Shown piece after piece: positions 5,601-63,770 of a stretch of DNA of 64,000 nt (the stretch's first letter is position 1; every line of letters begins with the position of its first letter). The translations under genes and the position numbers were made by a program. Under the pieces are notes generated by a model. It had not been told where the DNA came from, searched no databases, and saw only the letters and a program-made list of their open reading frames with translations. Source of the DNA: Alphaproteobacteria bacterium (lineage in GTDB: Bacteria > Pseudomonadota > Alphaproteobacteria > SP197); assembly GCA_964291415.2 (NCBI GenBank), contig OZ219920.1:64001-128000 (forward strand), read 5' to 3'.

Positions 5601-5691
5601 GCCTTCTGCCGGACCGTGCCGACAGGATCCGGAGAACGACCTCGGAGCGCCCTTCAGCAGGTTTCCGGGACCAACACAGGAGACAGACACC

Positions 5692-14617: not shown

Positions 14618-14663
14618 CAGGCAAGGCTCCCGGGGTGCTCGTCATGGTGGCAGGGTCCCGTCA

Positions 14664-16421: not shown

Positions 16422-16440
16422 GATTTGCCGAACGTCCGTC

Positions 16441-17724: not shown

Positions 17725-17905
17725 TCACGTCCCGGCGCGTTGTTCCCAAGCCGGCTGAAAGGGAACGTGGCGAAGGCCGGTGGACACATCACGTCGTGTC
17801 ACCGCGACATAGCGCGCCATGTTGTGCATGGAGGCTTCCATCCTGAATTCGGTCATGACGGCCTCACTCCCTGCCGGACTTTGTCGACGAACGGATGAAT
17901 CAAAG

Positions 17906-17943
17906 ATGCACCCCTTGCCGGAATCCACCGGCAAGGGGTGCAT
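17906..17943. terminator. 16-bp perfect hairpin 3' of SBP gene (terminator or mRNA stabiliser)
   Basis: ATGCACCCCTTGCCGG-AATCCA-CCGGCAAGGGGTGCAT, 12 nt after the SBP stop; weak U-tract. Confidence 0.7.
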
Positions 17944-17955
17944 GTCAGGTGATCG

Positions 17956-19053: not shown

Positions 19054-19338
19054 GAAATTCTCCCTCATTGTCGGTTTGTTCACGGACAGAACCCGGAATG
19101 GACCGGCGCCCGATTCTCCTTCAAACGATGTTCTGACCGTCCCACGATCGGACGGTTCTCACAATGGCAATCAGGCAGTATAGGCACATCCTCGGGTGGA
19201 TGACAGGCGGCACGGGCGCGCCGAGTCGGGGTGGCGCCGGGAAGGGAAGCGGTGGTTCCATCCGTGCCGGGCTCGCCGCGGGCTTTTCAATTGGATGCGA
19301 CTGGCGATACCATGCCCGGAGCGCGAGGAGTGAAGATC

Positions 19339-28608: not shown

Positions 28609-28776
28609 GTTCGGGTTACCCGGGCCGCGGCAATTCTGCATCTCGTCGCACGGCATGAATGATTCGGCGCGAAACGCGGATGCCCACGGGTTGGGTCGAG
28701 TCGAATGTGCCGATGGCATGCATCGCGAACCATGGCGCGCGCGAACACCGTCCCCGCCCCGAGCCGGAATGTGCAG

Positions 28777-29361
28777 TCAGCGTGCGGATTTGACCGCAAT
28801 GGCCAGACCGGTACTCCAGTCCATCTCGACCACCATGCAGTCCGGCCGCTGATTCAGTGAGGTCAGCAGTCCGGCGACCCTTTCGCCATGACCTTCGGGC
28901 CAGTTTCCTTGCGGCTGCATGTCGTCAATGACATAGATGCCACCGGTCTTCAGACGGTCCCAGACGGTCGCAAACTGCTCGTACTTGCCCGGGATGGCGT
29001 CGGCGAAAATCAGGTCGAACGACAGATGTCTGTTGGCTGCCAGCCATCCGATGGCATCTGCGACGACAAACCGCACTCTCGGATCGTCGCCCAGGTAGCG
29101 CTGGGCCACGCCCACCACATCGCGTTCTGTGTCGATCGTATGGAGCAACGAGGCGCTGTCCATGCCGTCCAGCAGCCAGGCTGTGGCAAGCCCCGTGCCG
29201 GTTCCGATCTCGAGAAACCGGCCCGCCGGCTTGCCGGCGGCCAGAACGCGCAACAGAGCCCCGGTGTCGCGCTCGGAGGCCAGGTCAAAACCCAGCCTGG
29301 CGGTCGCCTCCTCGATCGCCGCGAGCTGTGCGGGCGGCCGCATGCAGGTGTTCTCGTGCAT
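28777..29361 (-). CDS. Class I SAM-dependent O-methyltransferase
   Basis: LEIGTGTG, FDLIFADA.PGK, GGIYVIDD. Confidence 0.85.
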   Translation of the reverse strand: MHENTCMRPPAQLAAIEEATARLGFDLASERDTGALLRVLAAGKPAGRFLEIGTGTGLATAWLLDGMDSASLLHTIDTERDVVGVAQRYLGDDPRVRFVVADAIGWLAANRHLSFDLIFADAIPGKYEQFATVWDRLKTGGIYVIDDMQPQGNWPEGHGERVAGLLTSLNQRPDCMVVEMDWSTGLAIAVKSAR

Positions 29362-29652
29362 TGCGAACTCCACGGTCTTCGGGAGGTTTCGCCGCTCCGG
29401 TCAGAAGCTCCCTGGAACAGGCAAGGGGCTTTCCCAAACCTGTTGCAAAACCCCGAACCGCAATAGTGCCGATGAGACCGCCCTTGGGAAGGTGTCCGCA
29501 CGCGTTCATGGTCCTTTCCCACGGTCGTCCGGATCTGCACCGATGTCGCTGGCTCGCGCAGCCCCGTGACCCGAAACGCCCGTCTCCCGTTGATCGAGTC
29601 GCCGCCGGCCGCGGGCCGCACTATAGTCAGCGCATCCACCGGGGGAATGCGA

Positions 29653-30591
29653 ATGGCCGCGCTCATCACTTTCGAGAGATCCGCCGCTCCCGCCGTTGTG
29701 GCCGAAGCGATCGCCGAGCAGGGCTACGCCATCATCCACGACATGCTTGACGCTGACAGCCTTGCCCGTCTGCGCGGCGAGCTCGAGCCGCTGATCGCCG
29801 CGACGCCGGCCGGTCACGAGGCCTTCATGGGCATGAAGACCGTCCGTTTCGGCTGCCTGCTGGCGCGCTGCGAACAGGCGCGGGTCATGGCGCTCGACCC
29901 GATGCTGCTGGATGTCGTGGAGGGCTTCCTCGGATCCTTCTGCGCTCGGATCCAGATCAACTACACGGGCGTGATGCATCTCCTTCCGGGAGAGATGGCG
30001 CAGGTCGTCCACCGGGACACCGGGCTCTATCCATTCCAGAGTCCGTCCCCGCCTCTGATCTGCGCGACCATGTGGGCCGTGACGGACTTCACACGCGACA
30101 ACGGCGCGACCTGGCTGGTGCCCGGAAGCCATCTCTGGGAAGAGGGGCGAACGCCGGTCGAGAGCGAGGTCGTGCAGGCCGAGATGCCCGCGGGCTCGTT
30201 GCTGCTCTACAGCGGGGCGGTCTTTCACGGCGGCGGCGCGAATCGCTCGAACGCGGCGCGCACCGGCTGCGCCATCCAGTTCTCGCTCGCCTGGCTGCGC
30301 CAGGAGGAGAACCAGTACATGGCCTGTCCACCCGATCTGGCCCGGACCTTCCCAAGGCGGCTCCAGGAGTTGATCGGCTACGATCTCGGCGCCGTGAACC
30401 TCGGCTTTGTCGACCACAAGCACCCCAACGAGGTGCTCAACGGCACGGCGGGCGACGGTCCCGGCGATCTGGGTCCCGAGGAGCTCCATGGGCGCGAGAA
30501 GCGCACGAACAAACTCAAAGTGGCAAGCTGGGCTCCGATGAACCGCAAGCGAGTCCGTCTCGACGCCGACATCGTGCAGGGCGGCGGCTAG
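29653..30591 (+). CDS. Phytanoyl-CoA dioxygenase (PhyH) family Fe/2OG enzyme
   Basis: QVVHRD, MWAVTDFTRDNGAT.LVPGSH, HGGGAN, WLRQEENQY. Confidence 0.9.
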   Translation: MAALITFERSAAPAVVAEAIAEQGYAIIHDMLDADSLARLRGELEPLIAATPAGHEAFMGMKTVRFGCLLARCEQARVMALDPMLLDVVEGFLGSFCARIQINYTGVMHLLPGEMAQVVHRDTGLYPFQSPSPPLICATMWAVTDFTRDNGATWLVPGSHLWEEGRTPVESEVVQAEMPAGSLLLYSGAVFHGGGANRSNAARTGCAIQFSLAWLRQEENQYMACPPDLARTFPRRLQELIGYDLGAVNLGFVDHKHPNEVLNGTAGDGPGDLGPEELHGREKRTNKLKVASWAPMNRKRVRLDADIVQGGG

Positions 30592-30759
30592 AACTGCACT
30601 CCTCGTGCGTGGCCATGTCGCAGCCTTCGCGGCATGACCCATGAAAGGGTACCGTTCGACGGAACTCCACCGGTTGTCGGACGCCAGTCCACGCGAGGCG
30701 AGGCCGGTCTGGTCTGGATCAGGCGGCGCCCTGCTGTTCCTGGAGCGGACGCCCGCCCG

Positions 30760-32019
30760 CTAGTCCCGGTGCGGCCGGGCGGCAATCTCCCGCGCGGCCC
30801 GGATGCCGGAGTAATAGGCGCCGTGACAGGTTCCCTGTCCGCCCACCATGGTGGCTTCGCCGGCGAAGAAGAGGCGGTCGCCGACGGTGCGCGCCAGGTG
30901 TTCGCGCTGGTGCGCCTGTCCGGGCCGTGCGCAAGCCCACGAGCCCCGTGTCCAGGGATCCGTGCTCCAGGCGGTGGTGATGGTCCGCACGACGTGTTCG
31001 CGTATGCCGTTGCCGAACACTTCGGCCACCCTGTCCACGGCGAAGTCCTGGCAGGCCTGCGGGCCCTGCCTCTCGAGCCAGACCGCGTGCCGGCCGCCGA
31101 CGAAGACGGCAGCAACGTTGAGACCCATGGCGCTGGCGTCGATCTTTGCCGTGGCGCCGTCGCGATTCCAGAGCGTGTAGTGGCCGCGTCCCCCGTCTCC
31201 GAACACGTCCGTGTCGAAGGCGACTCCCATCTTGTTCTCGGTGCCCATGGGCAGGCCAAGGACGGCTTCCTGCTTCCAGTCGGGCAGCGGCGGCCAAAAG
31301 CTGACCTCGCCGGAGCCCAGAATGCCGGTTGAAACCGTGCAGAGGGCGCGGCGCGCCGTCACGGTTCCCTTCGACGTTTCGACCGAAACACCGGCCCCCG
31401 ACCAGTCGATGCGCTCCGCGCGTGCATTGAGGGTGACCTCGACATCGGCACCCCACGCGGCGACCAGGCCGCCGTAGCCGCGCACGGCCGGGTAACCGAG
31501 CTCTCCGGTGGAACTGGCGAAGTCGGCGGCGGATACCTCGTCGGCATCCAGGCCCCAGGCCGTTGCGACGTTCTCCAGAAAGGGTGCCGCGTAAGTGTTC
31601 TCGATATCGATCACGTCGCTGATCGCGACATCCGGACTGCTTCGGGCGGCCGCCGCAATGGCGCTGTGACATTCGACAAAGTAGCGACGGCAGGCGGTCC
31701 ATTCATCAGGAGTGAGCTCTGTGCCGTCTCGCACGAACCGGTGGTTTTCCGGTTTGTACGCATCGGCGGCGAATCTGCCGAGTTCGATGCCCAGATCATC
31801 GCCGATGTCGGCAAACGGGTTGCCGACCCCGGTGCCGAGCCAGGCGCAGCCCAGGTCGAACCACACATCCGGCATGATCTCCTCGGAGTAGGCTCGCCCG
31901 CCGATTCGATGCGATGCCTCGATGACCGTGCAGGAGACGCCGAGCCGGGCCAGTTCCTTCGCGGCCGCAAGCCCCGCCGCGCCTGCGCCAATGACAACGA
32001 CGTCCCGTTGCGTGGTCAT
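30760..32019 (-). CDS. Flavin monoamine oxidase family protein
   Basis: IGAGAAGL, EASHRIGGR, FDLGCAW, FFAGEAT, TCHGAYYSG. Confidence 0.9.
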   Translation of the reverse strand: MTTQRDVVVIGAGAAGLAAAKELARLGVSCTVIEASHRIGGRAYSEEIMPDVWFDLGCAWLGTGVGNPFADIGDDLGIELGRFAADAYKPENHRFVRDGTELTPDEWTACRRYFVECHSAIAAAARSSPDVAISDVIDIENTYAAPFLENVATAWGLDADEVSAADFASSTGELGYPAVRGYGGLVAAWGADVEVTLNARAERIDWSGAGVSVETSKGTVTARRALCTVSTGILGSGEVSFWPPLPDWKQEAVLGLPMGTENKMGVAFDTDVFGDGGRGHYTLWNRDGATAKIDASAMGLNVAAVFVGGRHAVWLERQGPQACQDFAVDRVAEVFGNGIREHVVRTITTAWSTDPWTRGSWACARPGQAHQREHLARTVGDRLFFAGEATMVGGQGTCHGAYYSGIRAAREIAARPHRD

Positions 32020-42743: not shown

Positions 42744-44045
42744 ATGATGCACAGCGAAACCGCTTTCCTCGTCGACACGCTGTCCTTCCTTGTCTGGGGA
42801 GGGCTGGTCATGTGGATGTGCGCGGGCTTCACGATGATCGAGGCCGGATCGGTGCGAACCCGGAACGCGTCGGTGACCTGTCTCAAGAACATCGGACTGT
42901 GTTCCATCGCCGTTCTCACCTACTACCTGGTGGGCTTCAATCTCATGTTCGTTGACGTCGAGCCCGGCGGCTGGATTGGCGCGCTGGAGTTGTTTCAGGG
43001 TTCGACCGCTGCCGAACGCCAGTTGCTGCAGGGCCAACAGGAGGTTCTGGACACGGTGGTGGCGACGGGCCATGCCTCGATGTCGAGGTGGTTGTTCGGC
43101 ATGGTCTTCGTTGCCTCGGCAGCATCGATCGTCTCGGGCACGCTCGCCGAACGCGTGAAGCTGTGGCCGTTCTTCCTTTTCATCGTGGTGCTCACAGGCA
43201 TCATCTATCCCGTCGTCGGCGCCTGGGCCTGGGGCGGCGGCTGGCTCGCAGAATTGGGATTCCACGATTACGCTGGCTCGACGGTGGTGCACGCGACCGG
43301 TGGCTGGGCGGCGCTGGCTGGGGTGCTGATCGTCGGCGCCCGAACCGGAAAGTTCCGGGACGATGGTACGGTCAAGTCGACACCGCCGGCGAACATTCCG
43401 GCCGTGACCCTCGGCGTCTTTTTCATCTGGCTGGGATTTCTGGGCTTCAACGGCGCCTCGCAGCTGGCGTTCGGCAGCGCAATCGATGCGGTCGCCGTGG
43501 CCAACGTTCTGGTGAATACCAATCTGGCGGCGGCTGCCGGCACGTTGACGGCACTGACCATCTCCCGTCCGTTGTTCGGCCACGTGGACTTCCAGGCATC
43601 CGTCAACGGCGCCATCGCCGGCCTGGTGGCGGTCGCCGCGGGTCCGGATTTCGCCGATCACACCTGGGCTCTCTTCATTGGCGCGACCGGCGCCATTGTC
43701 TGCACCTCGGGCATGAAACTCCTGCTGATCCTGAAGATCGACGATGAGGTGGGGGCAGTTTCGGCCCATATGGCAGCGGGAGTGTGGGGAACGCTCGCAG
43801 TCTGCTTCACCCATGATGGTGTCCTGCTGGCCCAACTGGCCGGCGTCGCAGCGGTCGGCGGCTTCGTGTTCGCATCCTCGTTCATTGTGTGGTGGATCAT
43901 CGACGTGCTGGTGGGCGTGAGAAACCCGCCGCATGTCGAGCAGGCAGGCCAGGACCTCGCCGAACTTGGCATCGTCGCCTACCCGGAATTCATGCTCATC
44001 GACGATGTCGACGACGCGAATGAGGATCCTTCGCCATACCCCTGA
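42744..44045 (+). CDS. amtB: Ammonium transporter (Amt family)
   Basis: AGFTMIEAG, IVSGTLAER, DYAGSTVVH, GFNG, DDEVGAVSAH, AYPEF. Confidence 0.93.
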   Translation: MMHSETAFLVDTLSFLVWGGLVMWMCAGFTMIEAGSVRTRNASVTCLKNIGLCSIAVLTYYLVGFNLMFVDVEPGGWIGALELFQGSTAAERQLLQGQQEVLDTVVATGHASMSRWLFGMVFVASAASIVSGTLAERVKLWPFFLFIVVLTGIIYPVVGAWAWGGGWLAELGFHDYAGSTVVHATGGWAALAGVLIVGARTGKFRDDGTVKSTPPANIPAVTLGVFFIWLGFLGFNGASQLAFGSAIDAVAVANVLVNTNLAAAAGTLTALTISRPLFGHVDFQASVNGAIAGLVAVAAGPDFADHTWALFIGATGAIVCTSGMKLLLILKIDDEVGAVSAHMAAGVWGTLAVCFTHDGVLLAQLAGVAAVGGFVFASSFIVWWIIDVLVGVRNPPHVEQAGQDLAELGIVAYPEFMLIDDVDDANEDPSPYP

Positions 44046-44051
44046 CGGTGA

Positions 44052-44387
44052 ACTGGCGGCAGATGCCGGGCACGGCCACGACACGGCTGGAGCGCTCGAC
44101 GGTCATGGCGAAGCCGCCCTCGAGCACGGTACGCAAGCGCACCACGACATGATCGGGGAGCATGAAGAGATTGGCGATGGTCTTCTTCCCGATCCTGGGT
44201 CCTTCACGCCAGGCCCTTGTCAGCAGCACGGCGGGTTTGTCGGCCAGGTTGGGAACGTGTTCGATGTTGAAGGTCCTGGGGCATCCACCATGGGCACAAC
44301 GTGCCAGTACTGACCCTCTCAAAGACGATGATTACAAGATTAATTCAGCGAGTTAGGCAAGTTGAGCGCCGATGACGTTCCGCCTAG
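44052..44387 (-). mobile_element. IS1634-family remnant (left end plus 5' transposase fragment)
   Basis: IEHVPNLADKPAVLLTRAWREGPRIGKKTIANL..LP..V...LRTVLEGG resembles the IS1634 transposase N-terminus. Putative end CTAGGCGGAACG at 44387; AT-richer stretch. Confidence 0.7.
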
Positions 44388-44474
44388 ACTCTTTCTGATC
44401 GCCGCAGGGCACGAACCGTCGGCACACGACGGGATGATCGAACGGCGTGCTGTTTGCGGACAGGAGGAGGACGT

Positions 44475-45065
44475 GTGACGAAACCGTTCTGCTGGATCGA
44501 GACAGTCGATCGCGAGGAGGCGGGCCCCGAGTTGGCCGACGCCTATGGCGAGGTCTGCCGTGGCGACGGCAGTGTCCACAACATGTACCAGGCGTTCGCA
44601 ACGAGGCCCGACCTTCTGATCATGGCGGACCGGTTCTACCGTGCGCTGCTGCACAGCCCGCGGCGCAGCCTGGAGGCCTGGGTGCAGGAGCTGATCGCGA
44701 CCTGGGTCGCGATCCTCTGCGGTTGTCGCTACGCGAAGGACAATCACGGCGCAAACATGACGAGCCTGCTGGGCGATCGGGAACGGGGACAGGCCATGCT
44801 GGAGGCGCTCGAGGCAGGAGAGATCCCGGCGGACACCGACGCTTACCTTGCGGCGATCCTCGCCTACACGCGCAAGCTCACCCTCGAGCCCGCCACAATG
44901 GCCAGGGGGGACGTTGCGGCGTTGCGCGAGGCGGGCCTGGGCGATGCCGAGATCTTCGAGGTCAACCAGATTGCCGCCAACTTCGCCTACTGGACGCGCA
45001 TGTTGAACGGGCTGGGCGTGACGGCCGACGGCGAGCCGGTCGGCATGTACGGAAACGGACCGTGA
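44475..45065 (+). CDS. AhpD/carboxymuconolactone-decarboxylase-like (peroxidase-related) protein
   Basis: GGAGG RBS plus GTG; ELIATWVAILCGCRYAKDNH, YTRKLT, LREAGLGDAEI, ANFAY..R..NGLG. Confidence 0.85.
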   Translation: MTKPFCWIETVDREEAGPELADAYGEVCRGDGSVHNMYQAFATRPDLLIMADRFYRALLHSPRRSLEAWVQELIATWVAILCGCRYAKDNHGANMTSLLGDRERGQAMLEALEAGEIPADTDAYLAAILAYTRKLTLEPATMARGDVAALREAGLGDAEIFEVNQIAANFAYWTRMLNGLGVTADGEPVGMYGNGP

Positions 45066-46501
45066 GCCGCCGTGGCAGGCGACGCGGCGGGCGAAACTCG
45101 GCTCTCGCGCGGGAGGCCCGGCCAGCGCAGGATCTGCGGCGTGCACAGAATCTCCGACTCCCGGTCCTGGAGCGGGCGGACGTCATGGCAATCCATGATG
45201 GCGCCCTGCGCATTCTCGATGAGGTTGGCGTCATCGTCGACGACGAGGGAACGCGCAGGGATCTTCTGGAGAACAGGGGCTGCCGACAGGACGAGGATGG
45301 CTATGTGCGCATTCCACCGGCACGGGTCGAGGCTGCGCTGCAAACGGTGCCCCGCAGCGTCGAACTCTACAACCGCGAGGGCGAGCGGGTGGTCGATACC
45401 GCCGCCGATCGCCCCGCCTATTGCGCCGGGCACAACTGCGTCAACATCCTGGATCACAGAACCGGCGAACTCAGGCCCGGCGTTCTGAATGATCTCGCCA
45501 ACACGGCCCGGGTTTGCGAAGCGCTGCCCCATCTCGACGTCGCCTGTTCGCTGGGCTACCCGACCGACGTCGAAGCCGAGGCCGAGGCGGTGACTTCTGT
45601 CACGGCGATGATGGACAACACCGTCAAGCCCATCGCGTTCACGGCGCACGACGAGATCAAGGCCGAGGCCATATGGCAAGCGATGGCTGACCGCGTCGGC
45701 GGTTGGCGGGCTCTGGGCGACAAGCCCTGCGGACTCGACCTTACGGGCCCGGTTTCGCCGCTGCGGCTGGGCGACGAACTTTGCCGCAGGCTGCAACTCG
45801 CGGCGCGAGGGCGTTTCCCGGTCGTGTGCTATCCAGCGATCTTCCCGGGCATGGCCGGTCCGATCACGCTGGCCGGGGTGCTGGCGCAGTCTGCAGCCGA
45901 ATCGCTGGCCGGCATCGTGGTCCACCAGATCGCCAACCCCGGCGCGCCGGTGATGGCAGGCTCGTCCGTCCTGCCGATGGACATGAAGACCGCGACCATT
46001 GCCTACGGCGGCCCCGAATACATGCTGGCCAATCTCGGCGGCACCGACTACTACAACGCGATCGGCGTGCCGAGCTGGATCGGCGCGGGCTGCTCGGATT
46101 CCCACGCCGTCGACGCCCAGGCGGCGTCGGAAGTCGGTGCGAACCTGGCGCTCGCGGGGCTTGCCGGCACGGCCTTCGTCCACAACCTGGGCTTCCTTTC
46201 CTCGGGCCGCACGGGCTCGCTGGAGATGCTGGTCCTGTGCGACGAACTTGCAGGCTGGGCGAGCCGCTTCGCCAACGGCATCGAGGTCAACGAGGACACG
46301 ATCGGCTTCGAGGTCGTGAAACGCGCAGCGAAGGACAACACGTTCCTCACCGACGAGCACACCACGGCGCGGTACATGACTGAAAACTGGTTCCCGCCGA
46401 TGTCCGAACGTTCCGATTCCGCCGCCTGGCAGACCGGCGGCGCGCGGACAATGCAGGACAAGATCAGGGACCGTCTGCGCGGGATTCTGGACGAAAGCTG
46501 A
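45062..46501 (+). CDS. Trimethylamine methyltransferase (MttB) superfamily, non-pyrrolysine
   Basis: IHDGALRILDEVG, VSPL, PITLAG.LAQ..AE.LAG, PGAPV, DMKT, DAQA; no in-frame TAG. GTGA overlap with the upstream gene. Confidence 0.88.
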   Translation: MSRRGRRRGGRNSALAREARPAQDLRRAQNLRLPVLERADVMAIHDGALRILDEVGVIVDDEGTRRDLLENRGCRQDEDGYVRIPPARVEAALQTVPRSVELYNREGERVVDTAADRPAYCAGHNCVNILDHRTGELRPGVLNDLANTARVCEALPHLDVACSLGYPTDVEAEAEAVTSVTAMMDNTVKPIAFTAHDEIKAEAIWQAMADRVGGWRALGDKPCGLDLTGPVSPLRLGDELCRRLQLAARGRFPVVCYPAIFPGMAGPITLAGVLAQSAAESLAGIVVHQIANPGAPVMAGSSVLPMDMKTATIAYGGPEYMLANLGGTDYYNAIGVPSWIGAGCSDSHAVDAQAASEVGANLALAGLAGTAFVHNLGFLSSGRTGSLEMLVLCDELAGWASRFANGIEVNEDTIGFEVVKRAAKDNTFLTDEHTTARYMTENWFPPMSERSDSAAWQTGGARTMQDKIRDRLRGILDES

Positions 46502-56438: not shown

Positions 56439-57311
56439 TCAGCCGGATCCCAGGTAGGAGTCGATCCACTGCGAACGGGCTCCATCCGCGGTCCACAGGA
56501 TCGGAAAATAGTTGTCGTCCATGACGGCGTTGCCGTCATGGCGCATGTAGCGACCGTACATCGGGCCCGTGCCATGGGCGATGTTGCGGGGAACGAAACA
56601 CGCCTCGGATGACAGGCAGTGAACGACAAGAGAGCGCCTGGCGGAGCTGCCGCGATTCGCATTGGAACCGTGCCACGTGTTGCCGTGATGAAAGGAACCG
56701 CCGCCCTTCTTCACGACGACGGGAACCACGTCCGGCTCGCCCACTCCCTGGGCTGCCGCCGCCTCCCGCATCTCCTTCGTGTAGTCTTCCGGCCCGTGGA
56801 ACTGCTCGATGGGCGTCGCGCGCGACCACCTGTGGGAACCCCTGACCAGTTCCATGGTTCCGGCCTCGGCAGAGGTATCATCAAGGGCGATCCAGCAGCT
56901 GATCATCTCGTTGGGATTGATCCAGTCGAGGTAGGCGCAGTCCTGATGCATGCCCAGCGGCCGGGTGCCGACGGGTTTCCACAGCACGTTGTCGACCTTG
57001 ATGCGGGCTCCGGGCCATCCTCCCAGAGTGGCGCAGGCCCGGCCGATATCCTCTCTCAGGACCGTTTCGGCAACTGTCCTGTCCCCCTTCCAGCCGTTGC
57101 AGATCTGGCGTGTCAGGGTCGGATCGCTGACACCGTCCTGCCAGTTGACCTCGTCGGGGCGGATGCCGGTCTCGAATTCGCCGCGGAACATCCTGTCGTA
57201 TCGCGCCTTGATTCTCTCGGCGGTTTCATCGTCGATCAGGTTGTCGACAAAGACGAAACCGTCGCGATGGAAGGTCTCGATTTCACGATTCGTCAGTTCG
57301 AATGTGCTCAT
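56439..57311 (-). CDS. PhyH family Fe/2OG dioxygenase
   Basis: F.RDGF, WKP, HQD, WIALDD...GTME..RGSH, WHGS..N, RRS. ATGA overlap with the upstream GS-like gene. Confidence 0.9.
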   Translation of the reverse strand: MSTFELTNREIETFHRDGFVFVDNLIDDETAERIKARYDRMFRGEFETGIRPDEVNWQDGVSDPTLTRQICNGWKGDRTVAETVLREDIGRACATLGGWPGARIKVDNVLWKPVGTRPLGMHQDCAYLDWINPNEMISCWIALDDTSAEAGTMELVRGSHRWSRATPIEQFHGPEDYTKEMREAAAAQGVGEPDVVPVVVKKGGGSFHHGNTWHGSNANRGSSARRSLVVHCLSSEACFVPRNIAHGTGPMYGRYMRHDGNAVMDDNYFPILWTADGARSQWIDSYLGSG

Positions 57312-58783
57312 GGCAGACAGTCCAGGTAGGTGTTCATGTCCCAATCGCTGACCTCGGCATTGAACCGGTCCCACTCGTCACGCTTGTATTCATCATAGAT
57401 CTCGTAGAGCCGTCCCGGAAGGGCGGAACGCACCACGTCATCAGCCGCGAGTGCGTCCAGTGCTTCGCCGAAGTAGCGCGGCAGGCGCTGGACGATCTTT
57501 CCGGCCTCCATGGCTTCGTAGATGTTGCGTTGCTCGGGCTTGCCCGGGTCGAGCTGGCGGGCGATGCCGTCATCCATCGCCTTCAGCAGAGCCGCAGCCA
57601 TGAGATAGGGATTGACCATCGAATCGACGGCCCGGTATTCGAACCGGCCCGGAGCCGACACCCTCAGCGCCGTTGTCCGGTTCTGATAACCCCAGTCGGC
57701 ATAGATGGGCGCCCACAGACCGAGATCGAGCATGCGCCGGTAGGAGTTGACGGTGGAGGAGCCGATGGCGGTGAGCGCGGGCAGGTGTTCCATGACACCG
57801 CCAATGGCATGGAGGCCGAGGGGGCCCGGCATCCAGTCATCCGGATCATGGATGAAGACATTGGTGCCTCCCTTGCGGTGCAGGTAGACGCCGTCGACAC
57901 CAGGCCGCGGATCGTCGGCATGGCAGACCATGGAATCGTCGCCACCTCTCCACAGGGACATGTTGTGATGGCAGCCATTCCCCGACAGGCCCATGAACGG
58001 CTTTGACATGAAGCAGGCGATGAGGCCTTCCTCGCGGGCGACCTGTGCGCAGATCTGGCGGTAGGTGGTCAGCCGGTCGCAGGTCCTCAAGGCGTCGTCA
58101 AACATGAAGTTGATCTCGAGCTGGCCCGGCGCGTCCTCGTGATCGCCCTGGATCATGTCGAGACCCATCGCCTGACCATACGAGACGACCCTGGCGTAGA
58201 CGCGCGACAGTTCCTCGAACTGGTCGATGTGGTACGCGAGCGGCTTGGTCGGTCCGCCGTCGGGCCGGCCGTCTTCACCACGCTTGAGCCAGGCCATTTC
58301 GGGTTCGCAGCCATGCCTGAGGTGGAGGCCGTCGTGGTCGGCCATGAACTGTTCATGGACGCGCCGCAGGTTGCCGCGGCTGTCTTCCTCCATGAAAGCG
58401 CCCGGATTGTCTCCCTCCTCACGGGCATGAAAGACCGTGCAGTAGACGCGCGCGGCCTCCCTGTTCCAGGGCAACTGGCAGAAGGTCTCGGGATCGGGGA
58501 TTGCCACCAGTTCATGGGCATTGGCGGGAAATCCAAGGAGGTTTCCCGACCGGTCGGGCAGGACATTGGTGAGGCCGCCGTACCACGTCTGGATGCCCCG
58601 TGCGGCCATGGATTCCCAGTGCGGTGCCGGCACGGCCTTGCCCATGATGCGCCCGGTGATCGAGATGTACTGGTAATAGATGTAGCGCACGCCCAGTTCG
58701 TCGATCTTTGCCCGTACATCCCGGATTCGCTCGTCGCGTCCGGCGGCTCCGACATGGCGTTCTATGTCCATGGTCATCCCCAT
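57308..58783 (-). CDS. Glutamine synthetase-like gamma-glutamyl-amine ligase 1
   Basis: CEPE, HEDAPGQLE, FMSKP...GNGCHH, NSYRR, QNRT..LR, RFEYR; WAP at the Glu-flap. Confidence 0.88.
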   Translation of the reverse strand: MGMTMDIERHVGAAGRDERIRDVRAKIDELGVRYIYYQYISITGRIMGKAVPAPHWESMAARGIQTWYGGLTNVLPDRSGNLLGFPANAHELVAIPDPETFCQLPWNREAARVYCTVFHAREEGDNPGAFMEEDSRGNLRRVHEQFMADHDGLHLRHGCEPEMAWLKRGEDGRPDGGPTKPLAYHIDQFEELSRVYARVVSYGQAMGLDMIQGDHEDAPGQLEINFMFDDALRTCDRLTTYRQICAQVAREEGLIACFMSKPFMGLSGNGCHHNMSLWRGGDDSMVCHADDPRPGVDGVYLHRKGGTNVFIHDPDDWMPGPLGLHAIGGVMEHLPALTAIGSSTVNSYRRMLDLGLWAPIYADWGYQNRTTALRVSAPGRFEYRAVDSMVNPYLMAAALLKAMDDGIARQLDPGKPEQRNIYEAMEAGKIVQRLPRYFGEALDALAADDVVRSALPGRLYEIYDEYKRDEWDRFNAEVSDWDMNTYLDCLP

Positions 58784-58814
58784 CGCCTCCCATCACTCCC
58801 TGCGGACGGCCGGT

Positions 58815-60143
58815 TCACACCACCTCGAGGTAGCGTTCCCGCTCACCGGCACTGACATGACGGCGCAGCCTTGCATCTTCGTGGAAACGCGTTGCCACGA
58901 AATGATCGATGAAGGTGTCGCCAAAGATGGCGCGCGCCGCCTTGCTCGCATCGAGGCGCTCCGCAGCCTCGGCAAGGCTGCGGGCAAGGCGCGGGACACC
59001 TGGTGGTGTGTCGTCTGGCCCGCCGCCCGTGATGGGCGTCGGCAGGTCCATGTTCCTCTCGATGCCGTGAAGTGCCGCGCCAAGCGTGGCTGCAATGGCA
59101 AGATAGGGGTTCGTGTCGGCGCCCGGGAGGCGGAACTCGATGCGGGCCTGGTCTTCGGGCGCTGGCACGGCCCGCACCGCCGCGGCGTAGTTCTCGACGG
59201 CCCAGGTCGCCGTCTTCGGCGCCCAGTTGCCCGGCGCCAGGCGGCGGTAGGCATTGACGGTATGGGCCACCATGGCAGTGAGGTCGCCGGTGAGTCCCAC
59301 CACGCCGGCGACAGCCTGGCGCATCGTCGTGCTCATGGCATCCGCTGCTCCGGCGTCGTGGAACAGGGTCCGGCCGGTGGCGCTGTCGGCGAGCGAGAGG
59401 TGAACATGTCCCGAGAGCCCGGGATGGGAGGCGCCGAGCTGGGCCATGAAACTCGCAGTCATGCCCTGGCGCCGCGCATGGGCCTTGGTCAGGGTCTTGA
59501 AGAGGACGGCATCGTCAGCGGCCTTCAGGGGATCGCCTGCTTCGAGAGTCGCCTCGAAACAGCCTGGGCCGAGTTCGAGACCGAGGCTGAAGAGACCGAT
59601 GCCCGCCTCGCGAACCAGCTCTTCGAGGGATGTCACATAGTCACTGTGGATGGCGGCGGACTGGCTGCCCCAGCAACGGTTGTCGGCAGCGAAGAGCTCG
59701 ATTCGGTCAGCGAAGCCGTTCACGCGCAGGGTTTCCGCCGTCTCCTTCAGCACGTGAAACTCGAACTCCATGGCGGCGCGGACGGCGTATCCCGCATCTG
59801 CCGCGCGGGCGATCTGCGCGGCGAGTACCTGACGCGGACTCAAGGCGCGCGACGGACCGTCATAGTCGGCGAAGACGATGAACGAGTCCTGCTCGAACGG
59901 CCAGTCCCGCACGCTCGTCCAGTCGAGAACGACAGGTTCACCCACAAACGGCGGTGAACCGGTCACCTGTTCGGCGGTATCCCACTTGTGGAGCACGTTG
60001 ACGAAGGTCCCGGAAGTTCCGAACGTGGTCACGATGTCATCGAGCCTGAGGCGTCGGCCCCGCAGGCTGGCGTCGAGATCGGGAATGACGACATGGCCGA
60101 CACGCTTGCCCGCCTCGCGCAGCCGGGAATGGGCGTCGTTCAT
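58815..60143 (-). CDS. Glutamine synthetase-like protein 2
   Basis: MEFEF, ELGPGCFE, SGHVHLSL, NAYRRL..GNWAP, RIEFRLPGADTNPY. Confidence 0.85.
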   Translation of the reverse strand: MNDAHSRLREAGKRVGHVVIPDLDASLRGRRLRLDDIVTTFGTSGTFVNVLHKWDTAEQVTGSPPFVGEPVVLDWTSVRDWPFEQDSFIVFADYDGPSRALSPRQVLAAQIARAADAGYAVRAAMEFEFHVLKETAETLRVNGFADRIELFAADNRCWGSQSAAIHSDYVTSLEELVREAGIGLFSLGLELGPGCFEATLEAGDPLKAADDAVLFKTLTKAHARRQGMTASFMAQLGASHPGLSGHVHLSLADSATGRTLFHDAGAADAMSTTMRQAVAGVVGLTGDLTAMVAHTVNAYRRLAPGNWAPKTATWAVENYAAAVRAVPAPEDQARIEFRLPGADTNPYLAIAATLGAALHGIERNMDLPTPITGGGPDDTPPGVPRLARSLAEAAERLDASKAARAIFGDTFIDHFVATRFHEDARLRRHVSAGERERYLEVV

Positions 60144-60156
60144 TGACGGCAACCCT

Positions 60157-60993
60157 TCAGGTCCCGAGAGCCCGGGCGTGATGCTCGAAGTGATCGGCAA
60201 GAAAGCTCTGGATGAACCAGTAGCTGTGGTCGTAGCCCTCGCGCATGTTGAGCGTCAGCGCCTGTCCGGCTTCCTTGCAGACGGCGGCCAGCGCATCGGG
60301 AAGCAGGTTGGGAAGGAATTCGTCCTCGGTTCCCTGGTCGGCGAGGATCGGCGGCGCCCGGTGACCGGAGCGGATCAGGTCGACAACGTCATAAGCACGC
60401 CAGGCCTCCCGGTCATCGCCGAGGTAGCGCTGCAGTGCGTCGACCCCCATCTGGCAGCCCATGAGGGAGTTCATCGGCGCCAGCGCCGAAACCGAACGGA
60501 ACATGCCGGGATTCTTGAGGGCAAGCGACAGTGCGCCATGGCCGCCCATGGAATGTCCGAAGATGCTCATCCTCTGCGGATCGCCGGGAAAGGCTTCGGC
60601 GATGACGCCGGGAAGCTCGCGGACGATGTAGCTTTCCATGCGGTAGTGCCGGGACCACGGTTCGACGGTCGCATCAAGGTAGAACCCCGCCCCCGTTCCG
60701 AAGGCCCAGTCGTCGTCCTCGCCTTCGATTCCGGTGTTGCGCGGGCTGGTGTCGGGGGCCACCACGAGAATCCCGGCGTCCGCTGCCAGGCGCTGGGCGC
60801 CGGCCTTGATGGTGAAGTTCTCTTCCGTGCAGGTCAGACCCGACAGCCACAGGAGGATCGGCACCCTTGCCTGCGCCGCGGCCGGAGGCGTGAACACGGA
60901 AAACCCCATGGGAAGGCCGATTTCACGTGAGGTGTGCCGGTAGAACCCCTGTGTGCCGCCGTGACACCGGCTGAGCGAGACGGTTTCCACCAT
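60157..60993 (-). CDS. fghA: S-formylglutathione hydrolase
   Basis: WLSGLTC, PDTSPR, GAGFYLDAT, GHSMGGHG, YDHSY. Confidence 0.96.
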   Translation of the reverse strand: MVETVSLSRCHGGTQGFYRHTSREIGLPMGFSVFTPPAAAQARVPILLWLSGLTCTEENFTIKAGAQRLAADAGILVVAPDTSPRNTGIEGEDDDWAFGTGAGFYLDATVEPWSRHYRMESYIVRELPGVIAEAFPGDPQRMSIFGHSMGGHGALSLALKNPGMFRSVSALAPMNSLMGCQMGVDALQRYLGDDREAWRAYDVVDLIRSGHRAPPILADQGTEDEFLPNLLPDALAAVCKEAGQALTLNMREGYDHSYWFIQSFLADHFEHHARALGT

Positions 60994-60996
60994 GGT

Positions 60997-62106
60997 TCAG
61001 TAGATCACCACGCTGCGGATCGACTTGCCCTCGTGCATCAGGTGGAAGGCGTCGTTGATACCCTCGAGCGGCATGGTGTGGGTGATCATGTCGTCGATGT
61101 TGATCTTCCCGTCCATGTACCAGTCGACAATTCTCGGCACGTCCGTGCGTCCCTTGGCTCCGCCGAAGGCCGTGCCCCGCCAGACCCGGCCGGTCACCAG
61201 CTGGAACGGACGGGTGGAGATTTCGGCACCGGCGGGCGCCACACCGATGATGATGGATTCGCCCCAGCCCTTGTGGGCGCACTCCAGCGCCTGGCGCATG
61301 GTGGTGACATTGCCGATGCACTCGAAACTGTAGTCGGCGCCACCCCTGGTCAGGTTCACGAGCCAGGGAACGAGGTCGCCCTCGACCTCCTTCGGGTTGA
61401 CGAAGTGGGTCATGCCGAACGCCTTGCCGAGCTCTTCGCGCGCCGGATTGATGTCGACACCGACGATCATGTCGGCGCCGACGAGGCGCAGGCCCTGGAT
61501 GACATTGAGGCCGATTCCGCCCAGTCCGAACACCACGCAGTTGCTGCCCGGCTCCACCCTGGCAGTGTTGATGACGGCGCCGATGCCGGTGGTCACACCG
61601 CAGCCGATGTAGCAGATCTTGTCGAAGGGGGCGTCCTCGCGGACCTTGGCGAGGGCGATCTCGGGAACCACCGTGTGGTTCGAGAACGTCGAGGTGCCCA
61701 TGTAGTGGAAGATCTTCTCCCCGCCGATCGAGAACCGGCTGGTGCCGTCCGGCATGACGCCCTGTCCCTGCGTCACCCTGATGGCCTGGCAGAGGTTCGT
61801 CTTGCCCGACGTGCAGTACTCGCATTGCCTGCATTCCGGCGTATAGAGCGGAATGACATGGTCGCCCTTCCTGAGGCCCGAGACACCCGGTCCGACATCG
61901 ACGACGACACCTGCCCCCTCGTGACCGAGAATGGCCGGAAAGATGCCTTCGGGATCGGCGCCCGACAGCGTGAAGGCGTCGGTATGGCAGATGCCGGTTG
62001 CCTTGACCTCGACAAGAACCTCGCCTTCGCGGGGGCCCTCGAGATCAACCTCCTCGATGGTGAGCGGCGCATCCGCCTTGTGGGCAACAGCAGCGCGGGT
62101 CTTCAT
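60997..62106 (-). CDS. frmA: S-(hydroxymethyl)glutathione dehydrogenase / class III ADH
   Basis: CHTD, GHEGAG, CRQCEYC, GLGGIG, TRPFQLVTGRVWRGTAFGG. Confidence 0.97.
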   Translation of the reverse strand: MKTRAAVAHKADAPLTIEEVDLEGPREGEVLVEVKATGICHTDAFTLSGADPEGIFPAILGHEGAGVVVDVGPGVSGLRKGDHVIPLYTPECRQCEYCTSGKTNLCQAIRVTQGQGVMPDGTSRFSIGGEKIFHYMGTSTFSNHTVVPEIALAKVREDAPFDKICYIGCGVTTGIGAVINTARVEPGSNCVVFGLGGIGLNVIQGLRLVGADMIVGVDINPAREELGKAFGMTHFVNPKEVEGDLVPWLVNLTRGGADYSFECIGNVTTMRQALECAHKGWGESIIIGVAPAGAEISTRPFQLVTGRVWRGTAFGGAKGRTDVPRIVDWYMDGKINIDDMITHTMPLEGINDAFHLMHEGKSIRSVVIY

Positions 62107-62199: not shown

Positions 62200-62925
62200 C
62201 TATGTCGCGAGGACATCCGGCAGGTCCGCGACGCTGTCGATGACGATATCGAACCATGGCTCGAGCTGGTCCCGGGTGGCGGGTCCCGTCAACACGCCGA
62301 TCGCGGCGCCAAAGCCGGCGGCCCGCGCCATTCCCGCATCGGCTGCGGCATCATCGCCGATCATCGCCACTTCGCGAGGGTCCAGTCCGGTTTGCCGGCA
62401 GAATGCCTCGCCCATGCCGGGTCCGGGCTTGCCGCCGAAACCCCCGTCGGAGCCACACACGAAGGCGAGATGATCGCGAATTCCCAGCTGCTGCGCGGCC
62501 AGTTCCGCCAGTTCCGTGTCATCGTTCGTGGCAATGCCGAGGCGGTAGCCGGCCCCGGCCAGACGGTCGAAGAGGGCGGGCATGTCCGCCGTCGCGACCA
62601 GCCCGTCCAGGGAAGTCTCGCGGAAGACCCCGGAGATCAGGTCTTCCAGGTCGGGAGGCGCCGTCTCCGCGAGGATTGTGCTCCAGCACCGGACGATGTC
62701 CCGATTGGTGCCGCTGGCCAGCATGGAATCGGTTTCGAAGACGCCCAGGGACCGGTCGTATCCGGCTTCACGGAGCAGGTGATCGGCGATGTCGGGTTGC
62801 CCGGCTGCCCCGGCGACGCGCGAGGCCGCTTCGCAGAACGCCGGAATCCAGGTCTCGTTGAAGGCGACGAGGGTGCCATCCTTGTCGAAGAGCAGGCCCC
62901 TGATGGCGGTTGCCTGGCCTGTCAT
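62200..62925 (-). CDS. HAD family phosphatase
   Basis: FDKDGTL, ATND, KPGPG, MIGD...D. Confidence 0.9.
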   Translation of the reverse strand: MTGQATAIRGLLFDKDGTLVAFNETWIPAFCEAASRVAGAAGQPDIADHLLREAGYDRSLGVFETDSMLASGTNRDIVRCWSTILAETAPPDLEDLISGVFRETSLDGLVATADMPALFDRLAGAGYRLGIATNDDTELAELAAQQLGIRDHLAFVCGSDGGFGGKPGPGMGEAFCRQTGLDPREVAMIGDDAAADAGMARAAGFGAAIGVLTGPATRDQLEPWFDIVIDSVADLPDVLAT

Positions 62926-63770
62926 GATGCCGCCAGACGGTGGCGCCGCCATGCAATCTCGCGGTTCCACATTGCCTCGCCACCGCCGCGCTGGCGGCGC
63001 ACCAGGCACCAGGCAAGGGACACGGCAAGGGCGACACGGATCCAGTCCTCCAGGATCTTGGTCCCGCCCTCCATGCCGGTCGCCGCAAGAAGAACCCGGC
63101 ATTCTTCGCCTGAGAGTCCGGCCTCCGACGCGAAATAGGCCGGATCCCACAGCGGGTGGCAGAGAGCCGCATACTCCCAGTCCAGGAAGGTCACGCCGTC
63201 ACCGTCATCGATGATGTTCGGCGGCACGGGATCGACATGGGAGGCAACCGGCGCGGCGTCCTCGGGGCGGCAGACAGGCCTCAGGGCGTCCACGACGGCC
63301 CACCCGGCGCCGAAGGCGTCCGGGGCTTCGGGCGAGGCGCATCCGGCCTCGTCGAGATAGGTCTCCAGCTTCTCCCAGGGGTTCATCACGCCGGTGAACC
63401 CGGTGGCCTGCCTCAGCGTGCGGAAGGCGCGGCCCAGCCTCCGCAGGACAGGCGTTGCGAAGGGCCGTGCCATGGAATCCAGGGGCTGACCGTCCGCGAA
63501 ACGATAGAGAATCAACCCTGCACCGGGATCGGCCGCCAGGACCTGCGGCGCGACACCCAGCGATGACGCCACCCTCATGTGGCGGCACTCCCGGGAACGG
63601 TCGACGAGGTCCGCGGTCTCGCTTCCGGCCAGACGCAGGACGACATCGTCTCCCGCGATACGCAGACGCACGGCCCGGTTTGCGCTGCCGCAATAGATGT
63701 CGTTGACCAGCAGGTCGCGCGGATCGTGACCGAGATGTTCGAGGGCACGGGCGATCTCCGGATGTGTCAT
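62922..63770 (-). CDS. Choline/ethanolamine kinase-like phosphotransferase (APH family)
   Basis: GSANR, VVLR, DRSRE, Brenner motif HVDPVPPN, LDWEYA...PLWD. Confidence 0.85.
   Translation of the reverse strand: MTHPEIARALEHLGHDPRDLLVNDIYCGSANRAVRLRIAGDDVVLRLAGSETADLVDRSRECRHMRVASSLGVAPQVLAADPGAGLILYRFADGQPLDSMARPFATPVLRRLGRAFRTLRQATGFTGVMNPWEKLETYLDEAGCASPEAPDAFGAGWAVVDALRPVCRPEDAAPVASHVDPVPPNIIDDGDGVTFLDWEYAALCHPLWDPAYFASEAGLSGEECRVLLAATGMEGGTKILEDWIRVALAVSLAWCLVRRQRGGGEAMWNREIAWRRHRLAAS

Follow-up and report, generated by a model that had tools for sequence, protein, structure and literature searches.

Five consecutive genes on the minus strand of a 64,000-nucleotide stretch of alphaproteobacterial DNA (the whole of which we call the window) raise the question of whether a glutathione-dependent formaldehyde-disposal pair, two glutamine synthetase (GS)-like proteins and a dioxygenase constitute a pathway for amines, as a preliminary description had proposed. 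With start codons chosen by orthologue support, our gene calls agree with the layout given there: gaps of 3, 13 and 31 nt from frmA towards PhyH, then a 4-nt overlap of GS2 and PhyH. The Pfam domains are ADH_N/ADH_zinc_N (frmA), Esterase (fghA), Gln-synt_C in both GS1 and GS2, and PhyH. In the direction of transcription, the five genes and two upstream neighbors are:

62922..63770, minus strand: APH/choline-kinase-like phosphotransferase (PF01636, E 6e-14), overlapping the start of the HAD gene
62200..62943, minus strand: HAD-family hydrolase (PF00702 and PF13419), 93 nt upstream of frmA
60997..62106, minus strand: frmA, S-(hydroxymethyl)glutathione dehydrogenase (class III ADH), 369 aa (TIGR02818)
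60157..60993, minus strand: fghA, S-formylglutathione hydrolase, 278 aa (TIGR02821)
58815..60143, minus strand: GS1, atypical GS-like protein, 442 aa, with a Trp flap and Tyr319 replacing a catalytic Arg (Gln-synt_C)
57308..58783, minus strand: GS2, predicted GmaS-like gamma-glutamyl-amine ligase, 490 aa, of a distinct and highly conserved family (Gln-synt_C)
56439..57311, minus strand: PhyH-family Fe(II)/2-oxoglutarate dioxygenase, 290 aa, its first 4 nt shared with the end of GS2 (PF05721)

The frmA and fghA products scored above their NCBIfam cut-offs (628 bits against 544 for TIGR02818, and 409.5 against 282 for TIGR02821). Each is alone in the genome: frmA is the single copy at the equivalog level, the next tblastn match having 40% identity, and fghA is the sole tblastn match at E<=1e-8. 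The pair must additionally serve the Tdm (TMAO demethylase) and sarcosine-oxidase-type enzymes of the genome. The synteny search did not bear out a five-gene unit. frmA-fghA adjoin GS1 in 4 of the 80 genome loci (L001, L002, L003 and L006), all from the closest clade of the window, and in more distant relatives the position upstream of GS1 is held by ALDH/GMC genes or by nothing. Because the linkage is restricted to one narrow clade, it may be a recent accident.

The conserved core is instead GS2 plus PhyH. In 19 of the 80 loci, one gammaproteobacterium included, they stand side by side and point the same way; 13 more, from cyanobacteria and Betaproteobacteria, carry PhyH 1-4 kb away from GS2 on the other strand. 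All 19 clade-A GS2 genes have a PhyH. The proposed connection of a ligase with PhyH is thus upheld, the two being functionally linked across phyla. Among alphaproteobacterial PhyH loci of at least 47% identity, 6 of 15 have no GS2 within 9 kb. In a near relative a 9.7-kb insert separates GS1 from GS2, and the L134/L004 insert carries two DMGDH-like genes.

GS2 matched Gln-synt_C in Pfam (E 2e-81) and reached 317 bits against the GmaS equivalog TIGR03105, under its cut-off of 470. The flap motif reads LGLWAPI in GS2 and PGNWAPK in GS1, so that the WAP noted earlier is present in both. In RhGmaS, Trp300 is the counterpart of the flap Glu of GS (PMC7948447), and in an alignment to 7cql the Trp of GS2 falls on this residue; Gln175, Asp177, Glu179, Glu186, Asn188 and Arg312 of GmaS are likewise matched. 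Every methylamine-pocket and catalytic residue of RhGmaS that is named in PMC7948447 is retained in GS2. These GmaS-type residues are kept in 19/19 clade-A and at least 54/58 clade-B GS2 sequences, and GS2 shares 61-68% identity with homologues from cyanobacteria, SAR11 and Acidobacteria. All GS equivalog scores of both proteins in NCBIfam are under cut-off, and with Trp for the flap Glu, as in GmaS, neither is a true glutamine synthetase, in agreement with the preliminary description. GS2 differs from GmaS in an insert of ~35 residues and in having His-His-Asn where GmaS has His-x-His. Given these differences and the sub-cut-off GmaS score, the sequence is such that the substrate of GS2 need not be a methylamine.

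GS1 is the less certain partner. It matched Gln-synt_C (E 1e-77) and scored under every equivalog cut-off. At the position of Tyr319, an Arg is catalytic in GS and GmaS; Tyr replaces it in 121/121 family members and in 16/16 syntenic orthologues. Among the metal ligands and the remaining Arg positions that were checked, only Arg324 varies (120/121). Counterparts of Asp177 and Arg312, two residues that GmaS needs, are missing. The nearest solved relatives of GS1 include organic-amine ligases, and one solved relative, chain 8wwu, has Lys, not Arg, at the Tyr position. In the reading favored below, GS1 would act either as a ligase for a second amine or as an accessory subunit. Of the two gamma-glutamyl-amine ligases originally envisaged, GS2 retains this assignment through its GmaS-like residues, and GS1 does not securely do so.

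The PhyH protein matched PF05721 (E 2e-26), and 23 orthologues share its His122-x-Asp124, His214 and Arg225/226. The nearest folds to its AlphaFold model (pLDDT 95) are SnoN/SnoK and MysH (TM 0.66-0.78, ~20% identity). MysH is also the second-nearest solved relative by sequence (E 8e-10; TM 0.69-0.75), and its authors propose a hydroxylation next to nitrogen, followed by hydrolysis (PMC10666671). Such alpha-hydroxylation beside N with hydrolysis amounts to an oxidative N-dealkylation, although in MysH the role is biosynthetic, in mycosporine formation, and the substrate is a large chromophore. In L148/L149, GS1-GS2 and the regulators are followed by a cytochrome P450 and PhyH is absent, as if another oxygenase had displaced it. 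The genomic context of PhyH and GS2 agrees with the N-methyl/C1 chemistry suggested before. In L116 the order is tdm / tmm-PhyH-TMAO permease ... c9-c6-c3-c2-GS2, with tmm at 859 bits (NF058570, cut-off 675) and the permease at 831 bits (NF053774, cut-off 690), and L119 and L120 are alike. SAR11 loci have Tdm beside the GS2 module, a GFA-domain gene adjoins PhyH in L049 and L078, and the DMGDH-like genes mentioned above belong to the same context.

A survey of 401 sampled Alphaproteobacteria genomes, with PhyH orthologues defined at >=44% identity, extended this association. A GS2-family gene was present in 18/18 PhyH-positive genomes (background 38/401) and Tdm in 14/18 (background 33/401), while 20 of the 38 genomes with GS2 have no PhyH. 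Within the 33 Tdm-positive genomes, PF11927 (DmmA-type) occurred in 2/24 with GS2 and 7/9 without it (Fisher p 2.6e-4, with kin non-independent); the corresponding PhyH anticorrelation (2/14 versus 7/19, p 0.24) is not significant alone. Dmm is reported as absent from SAR11 (PMC5520151). The genome of the window itself has two Tdm copies over cut-off, no Tmm over cut-off and, in a search with a positive control, no PF11927. It encodes ~12 GS-family genes, and its contig C2 carries a canonical GS2-paralogue module and an mgsABC-like set; GS2 is ~31% identical to the classical GmaS-like genes of the genome. It had been stated that mgs/mgd and puuBCD genes are not adjacent. This is correct for the locus, with no mgsABC-, mgd- or Puu-like genes adjoining it within the window, but such modules exist elsewhere in the genome. 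The locus would therefore be distinct from the N-methylglutamate pathway as an addition to it and not as its replacement. As the canonical module and the mgsABC-like set are already present, one may question whether a third route would be required.

On these grounds we tentatively favor a route in which the GS2-PhyH module glutamylates mono- or dimethylamine and N-demethylates the product by Fe/2OG chemistry to glutamine and formaldehyde, the latter for glutathione-dependent disposal; both the substrate and the order of steps are what we infer from families, residues and neighbors. GS2 would use ATP to couple monomethylamine and/or dimethylamine with glutamate at its gamma-carboxyl. PhyH, putatively coupled to GS2 in translation, would hydroxylate an N-methyl carbon of the gamma-glutamyl amide. 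Breakdown of the carbinolamide would release formaldehyde and gamma-glutamylmethylamide and, after the last methyl, glutamine, so that the amine nitrogen would enter metabolism directly as glutamine. Outside the clade of the window, 4/9 loci have a sigma-54 promoter motif 118-142 nt ahead of GS1, as against 0/5 window-clade sequences. In this clade the module would have lost its own promoter and would rely on co-expressed frmA-fghA for formaldehyde removal. Since it has no sigma-54 promoter of its own and sits 13 nt behind the sole frmA-fghA, formaldehyde disposal is probably co-expressed with production. A literature search found no description of the GS2-PhyH gene set, which is conserved and uncharacterised so far; if the proposal is true, it represents a new short route by which an uncultured alphaproteobacterium uses the nitrogen of methylated amines.

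The same enzymes could act in the reverse order, which we regard as unlikely: PhyH would demethylate a free amine (for example, dimethylamine to monomethylamine and formaldehyde) and GS2 would trap monomethylamine as gamma-glutamylmethylamide, in the manner of GmaS. The complete RhGmaS monomethylamine pocket of GS2, the placement of the L116 PhyH between tmm and the TMAO permease, and the co-occurrence of PhyH with Tdm and seldom with PF11927 are in its favor, and the formaldehyde link (frmA-fghA in the window, GFA in L049 and L078) is equally compatible with it. However, PhyH never occurs without GS2 while GS2 occurs without PhyH, the Dmm anticorrelation tracks GS2 and not PhyH, and the 4-nt overlap puts PhyH behind the ligase. 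Clade A has no mgs-like partner, which would leave gamma-glutamylmethylamide without a local fate, and we know of no Fe/2OG enzyme for such a small free amine. A larger amine (a polyamine, amino alcohol or N-methylated derivative) is similarly improbable as the substrate. It would enter through a PotF-like ABC importer and be glutamylated by GS1 and/or GS2; PhyH would hydroxylate or oxidatively deaminate the glutamylated intermediate and ALDH would oxidise the aldehyde. The scheme would resemble a Puu/Pau-type pathway in which a dioxygenase replaces the flavin oxidase, the frmA-fghA adjacency being secondary. In L012-L017, L136, L138 and L139, GS1-GS2-PhyH is flanked by ALDH (nearest to SSADH, at 595 bits under the cut-off of 646), a GMC oxidoreductase of the choline-dehydrogenase subfamily (618 against 605) and an ABC importer (PotF/YdcS-like binding protein, ATPase, permeases); relatives with GS2 at 78-84% identity have such neighbors. 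In the gammaproteobacterial locus L072, too, ALDH adjoins the three genes. With this context a larger amine is a better match than methylamine, and the organic-amine ligases among the nearest solved relatives of GS1 also speak for this reading. Yet the locus in the window has no ALDH, GMC or importer genes, the genome has no copy of the specific enhancer-binding protein (best match 38% identity), a PuuD-type hydrolase was found in none of the clusters examined, and the association of PhyH and GS2 with Tdm across genomes would be left unexplained.

Less likely still is a hydroxylation of the gamma-glutamyl amide by PhyH that leaves the C-N bond intact, comparable to that by the Ipu P450, with the product going to unlinked enzymes or being a metabolite in its own right. 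The nearest folds (SnoN, SnoK and PhyH itself) catalyze reactions other than dealkylation, and the P450 that L148/L149 have in place of PhyH after GS1-GS2 mirrors the IpuC/IpuD pairing. The sole carbon of methylated amines is on N, so a longer amine would be required, and neither the formaldehyde-related neighbors nor the Tdm co-occurrence would be explained. Finally, we consider it highly improbable that there is no pathway, with housekeeping frmA-fghA by chance beside nitrogen-assimilation isoenzymes and an unrelated dioxygenase. The confinement of the five-gene order to one narrow clade and the many GS-family genes of the genome would suit this account, but it conflicts with GS2-PhyH linkage in three phyla, perfect phyletic nesting, the GS2/PhyH overlap, and two GS-like proteins that have no flap Glu and score under the GS cut-offs.

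The tentatively favored route has precedents for its separate parts. In the isopropylamine pathway, reportedly of Pseudomonas sp. KIE171 with IpuC (GS-like) and IpuD (P450), the amine is glutamylated and the gamma-glutamyl amide is then oxygenated; a remote methyl is hydroxylated without C-N cleavage and a later hydrolase is needed. The ligase-then-oxygenase scheme is common to both, with a PhyH-type oxygenase here and a P450 there, and the distant L148/L149 even have a P450. Aniline degradation follows the same ligase-oxygenase logic with GS-like AtdA1/TdnQ and a Rieske dioxygenase. In 1-naphthylamine degradation, GS-like NpaA1 makes the gamma-glutamyl arylamide that is the true oxygenase substrate (PMC11335346). 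These last two systems differ from the locus in their aromatic substrates, Rieske dioxygenase and GS-like clade. The N-methylglutamate pathway (GmaS, MgsABC, MgdABCD) shares the ATP-dependent gamma-glutamylation of methylamine by a GS-like ligase with a Trp flap as first step (PMC7948447) and formaldehyde as end product, whereas the locus has an Fe/2OG dioxygenase in place of MgsABC/Mgd, and glutamine is its predicted product instead of N-methylglutamate. The dimethylamine monooxygenase DmmDABC may serve the same step, demethylation of dimethylamine with formaldehyde release, but its proteins and chemistry are entirely different, with a haem/flavin monooxygenase that takes the free amine. Puu/Pau (PuuA/PauA, PuuB, PuuC, PuuD) has in common a GS-like ligase and, in some relatives, ALDH and a PotF-like importer, but the cluster has no PuuB-type flavoprotein or PuuD hydrolase, and the NF045547 scores of 163 and 220 bits are far under the cut-off of 650.

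Directly upstream of frmA, the HAD hydrolase matched no specific NCBIfam family and the APH-family kinase gave only weak NCBIfam matches. The hydrolase is syntenic with frmA in L001-L003, L006 and L134, and both genes lie on the same strand and may belong to the transcription unit of frmA.

The five genes lie on the minus strand, where GS1 and GS2 denote two glutamine synthetase-like (GS-like) genes and PhyH an Fe(II)/2-oxoglutarate dioxygenase gene:

frmA, 62106..60997, minus strand, S-(hydroxymethyl)glutathione dehydrogenase, 369 aa
fghA, 60993..60157, minus strand, S-formylglutathione hydrolase
GS1, 60143..58815, minus strand, GS-like protein, 442 aa, full Gln-synt_C domain
GS2, 58783..57308, minus strand, GS-like protein, 491 aa, full Gln-synt_C domain
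PhyH, 57311..56439, minus strand, PhyH-family Fe/2OG dioxygenase

The preliminary description had given gaps of 3, 13 and 31 nt, a 4-nt overlap and a common orientation for the five genes, all of which we reproduced; the overlap joins GS2 and PhyH. FrmA scored 628 bits against TIGR02818 (equivalog cut-off 544, residues 2–368 of 369) and FghA 409.5 bits against TIGR02821 over its full length (equivalog cut-off 281.7), so that both pass. On the minus strand frmA is preceded by genes for a HAD hydrolase and an APH-like kinase, neither of which received a specific name in the NCBIfam profile search. The convergent two-component pair and PEPCK gene downstream look unrelated to the five-gene set.

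Neither GS-like protein reaches any of the equivalog cut-offs for GS, GmaS or PuuA. GS2 and GS1 scored, respectively, 247 and 158 bits against TIGR00653 (GlnA, cut-off 429), 317 and 183 bits against TIGR03105 (gamma-glutamylmethylamide synthetase, GmaS, cut-off 470), and 220 and 163 bits against NF045547 (PuuA, cut-off 650). Both have tryptophan in place of the catalytic flap glutamate, in the alignment columns where the GlnA of the same genome shows GYEAP. The GmaS structure study states that the flap glutamate of GS is replaced by Trp300 in GmaS, and assigns the methylamine pocket and catalysis to Gln175, Asp177, Glu179, Glu186, Asn188, Trp300 and Arg312 (PMC7948447). Solved GmaS structures are 7cql and 9qur, and in the alignment to 7cql GS2 retains all seven (RhGmaS numbering). 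GS2 resembles GmaS in its counterparts of the catalytic Asp177, Glu186 and Arg312 and of Trp300. It differs from GmaS in an insert of ~35 residues and in a His-His-Asn motif at the site of the His-x-His shared by GmaS and GS. The GS2 family is strongly conserved, at 61–68% identity in cyanobacteria, SAR11, Acidobacteria, Dongiaceae and others. In two of the sampled genomes the GS2 match holds one in-frame TGA each (G340:C5:69416-70882 and G375:C274:3058-4524), which may be due to pseudogene formation, to a sequencing error or to recoding.

Of Asp177, Glu186, Trp300 and Arg312 of GmaS, GS1 has only Glu186 and Trp300, with glycine for Asp177 and tyrosine for Arg312; the Asp-His of GmaS is Gly-Leu, and the metal ligands and the other arginines are all retained. 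The tyrosine (residue 319) occupies the catalytic arginine position of GS and GmaS. It is found in 16/16 syntenic orthologues and is invariant in 121/121 family members, at identities down to 51%; the solved relative 8wwu has lysine there. The invariant replacement of the catalytic arginine, together with Gly-Leu for Asp-His, makes GS1 a conserved yet atypical member of the GS family. Judged from its sequence, Tyr319 may reflect another mechanism or a non-catalytic partner.

PhyH matches PF05721 with 94 bits (gathering cut-off 22), and its model (pLDDT 95) confirmed the dioxygenase fold. Across 23 orthologues the iron triad His122, Asp124 and His214 is invariant, and Arg225/226, the arginine pair for 2-oxoglutarate, are at least 90% conserved. 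The protein falls short of the ectoine hydroxylase EctD profile (TIGR02408, 25 bits, cut-off 336.5). When solved structures were searched by sequence and by fold, SnoK/SnoN and MysH came nearest, with ~20% identity at best, and no close functional analogue was returned. Msil_3605 of Methylocella was considered as the same protein and rejected; according to its paper it is DmmD, a GcvT protein. In the distant relatives L148 (8320-13860) and L149 the order is GS1 (45% identity), GS2 (59%), a PAS protein, a sigma-54 activator and a cytochrome P450, and PhyH is absent. An oxygenase of another family appears, from this gene order, to take the place of PhyH. The logic of a ligase followed by an oxygenase is known for isopropylamine and aromatic amines, and the P450 arrangement supports it.

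We examined 80 genome loci with a GS2 relative. In 19/80 (L001–L018, and L072 from the gammaproteobacterium Plasticicumulans), GS2 and PhyH stand side by side in the same orientation. Thirteen more, in cyanobacteria and Betaproteobacteria, have a PhyH orthologue (34–54% identity) on the opposite strand, 1–4 kb away. A complete GS1 precedes GS2 in 12/80. Adjacent frmA-fghA was seen in only 4/80 (L001, L002, L003 and L006), all with GS2 identity of at least 93%. The GS2–PhyH pairing therefore recurs, whereas the linkage to frmA-fghA is confined to close relatives. Most other loci share a different partner set, each gene of which occurs in 32–38 of the 80: a DAO flavoprotein, GS2, a class-II amidotransferase, a GXGXG protein, a glutamate-synthase FMN domain and a 136-aa protein. 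An Amt transporter often comes after this set and, in SAR11, TMAO demethylase (Tdm) lies ahead of it. A tree of 82 sequences, built by a quick method, falls into two clades. Clade A (19 rows, the window included) is PhyH-linked throughout; clade B (58 rows) mostly has GltS-like partners, with one cyanobacterial subclade PhyH-linked. Twenty fixed positions set the two clades apart, with many lying in the N-terminal domain and the flap. The window's genome (G000) has one GS2-family gene from clade A and one from clade B, of which the latter belongs to a canonical module located on contig C2. The locus has no N-methylglutamate pathway gene cluster, in that none of gmaS, mgsABC and mgdABCD adjoins it in the window; mgsABC-like genes and the module with the GS2 paralogue are on contig C2:

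G000:C2:807470-813985, canonical sister module: DAO flavoprotein, GS2 paralogue (64% identity), GATase, GXGXG, GltS-FMN, 136-aa protein
G000:C2:194848-197684, mgsABC-like set, Amt gene nearby

We consider it very probable that GS2 and PhyH are functionally linked. At the cyanobacterial loci L022–L036 and L063 an SBP_bac_3-like protein, with no obvious signal peptide in one representative, stands between PhyH and GS2; MOSC, an acyl-CoA-dehydrogenase-like flavoprotein, a 133-aa protein and Amt are nearby, as is Tdm in L024.

Nor is the five-gene unit fixed. L134 (8330-15326) and L004 (1-8000), two different records that overlap at 98.3% identity over 5.2 kb, together reveal an insert of 9.7 kb exactly in the GS1–GS2 spacer of a near relative, leaving frmA-fghA-GS1 ~9.7 kb upstream of GS2. 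The insert carries a tandem pair of DMGDH/sarcosine-dehydrogenase-like genes (799 and 803 aa) on the opposite strand, a 242-aa protein and an amino-acid-type (SBP_bac_3-type) ABC importer reading into GS2. In L007:1298-7000, transposase, DruA-like and PIN genes part a GS1 fragment (215 aa, 88% identity) from an intact GS2-PhyH. G033, from the same genus as the window, keeps PhyH (65% identity) beside short GMC and ALDH gene fragments at L109, with GS1 and GS2 absent within 9 kb; its sole GS2-family match (63% identity) is on another contig, and the L109 cluster looks decayed.

Perfect sigma-54 core motifs lie 118–142 nt upstream of GS1 in L012–L015, and after PhyH the distant clade-A relatives have a sigma-54 enhancer-binding protein and a PotF/YdcS-like ABC importer. 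The core motif was not found upstream of GS1 in the window, L001, L002, L003 or L006, nor was the specific activator in the window's genome. In the window clade the module's own promoter thus seems to be lost and its expression, given the 13-nt gap, to rely on read-through from frmA-fghA. A scan for sigma-70 promoters and terminators gave 0 promoters and 3 terminator-like sites against 3.6 expected. In one RNA-library run, contigs 96–98% identical bridged the PhyH/GS2, GS2/GS1, fghA/frmA and frmA/HAD junctions, and none covered fghA/GS1. One contig spans the convergent kinase and PhyH gene ends, so DNA carry-over is possible; as such contigs cannot prove a single transcript, they were set aside as operon evidence.

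A sample of 401 Alphaproteobacteria genomes was searched for PhyH, Tdm, GS2 and PF11927, the DmmA-type (dimethylamine monooxygenase) family. PhyH matched in 25 genomes (18 at ≥44% identity), Tdm in 33, GS2 in 38 and PF11927 in 47, the last serving as positive control for that search; the matches spread over ~16 families. Among the 25 PhyH loci inspected for neighbours, GS2 was within 9 kb in 9/15 of those at ≥47% identity. PhyH-positive genomes (≥44%) had GS2 in 18/18 and Tdm in 14/18. Tdm-positive genomes had GS2 in 24/33, and PF11927 was present in 2/24 of those with GS2 vs 7/9 of those without (Fisher p 2.6e-4, which overstates the signal because related genomes are not independent). PhyH against PF11927 alone gave no significant association (p 0.24). 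In L116 the genes run tdm | tmm, PhyH, TMAO permease, and further on 136-aa protein, GltS, GXGXG, GATase and GS2; its Tdm, Tmm and permease each exceed their equivalog cut-offs, and L119 and L120 have the same layout. The window's genome has two Tdm copies over the cut-off, no Tmm over the cut-off and no PF11927 match. In G304, a genome lacking both GS2 and Tdm, a distantly related PhyH (39% identity, L128) lies 0.9 kb downstream of a frmA orthologue (84%), with an AsnC regulator between.

The best-supported reading, which we hold tentatively, is a three-step route. GS2 would glutamylate mono- and/or dimethylamine, PhyH would N-demethylate the amide to glutamine and formaldehyde, and FrmA and FghA would dispose of the formaldehyde. 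The genome's only frmA and only fghA are both at this locus, and a GFA-domain gene lies beside PhyH in 2/4 betaproteobacterial loci. For MysH the authors propose that the carbon next to nitrogen is hydroxylated and that hydrolysis follows (PMC10666671), the reaction type that PhyH would need here. PhyH might instead act first, on the free amine, which we think unlikely. About equally unlikely is a larger amine whose aldehyde is oxidised by an ALDH; upstream of GS1 the distant clade-A relatives do carry an SSADH-like ALDH, a HIT protein and a choline-dehydrogenase-like GMC oxidoreductase, and the window has frmA-fghA there. Hydroxylation by PhyH without cleavage seems improbable. That there is no pathway whatever we regard as very improbable beside the recurrent GS2–PhyH pairing.

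A wider reading, which we put forward with considerable doubt, is that GS2 and PhyH suffice by themselves as a shunt that runs on ATP, 2-oxoglutarate and oxygen and turns di- and monomethylamine directly into glutamine and formaldehyde. Together with the sister GS2/GltS-like module it would fill the dimethylamine step that is missing from the many marine, symbiotic and cyanobacterial lineages with TMAO demethylase and without dimethylamine monooxygenase. Our literature search, with subscription journals outside it, found no description of such a ligase-plus-PhyH system. The published pathway has a known gap in that the monooxygenase is missing in SAR11 and in numerous further lineages (PMC5520151). 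In the sea, methylated amines form a sizeable nitrogen pool, and they are precursors of aerosols. If true, the route would be a testable candidate for that gap and give the PhyH family a new reaction type, gamma-glutamyl amide N-demethylation. It would also account for a highly conserved GS-like family now annotated only 'glutamine synthetase', and provide new amine-cycling marker genes for sponge symbionts, cyanobacteria and soil bacteria.

The G000 assembly, with a stated contamination of 8.99%, has Tdm on C3 and C4 and a GS-like gene on C3 and C5, the copies being near equal in score; it may hold duplicated segments or two strains. Elsewhere in the window, an OpuAC-type binding protein lies at 5569-6660, and a further catabolic cluster for amines or betaines, at 13526-20556, consists of a PotD-type ABC importer, a DAO flavoprotein and a Rieske ring-hydroxylating-type oxygenase. 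A second, unrelated PhyH-family gene (29566-30591) has a flavin amine oxidase, a methyltransferase and an amidohydrolase alongside (26992-32019). At 42744-46501 a 684-aa methyltransferase of the MttB family comes after an Amt transporter; the methyltransferase is extended by ~210 residues at its N-terminus and scores 300 bits against TIGR02369, under the cut-off of 525.
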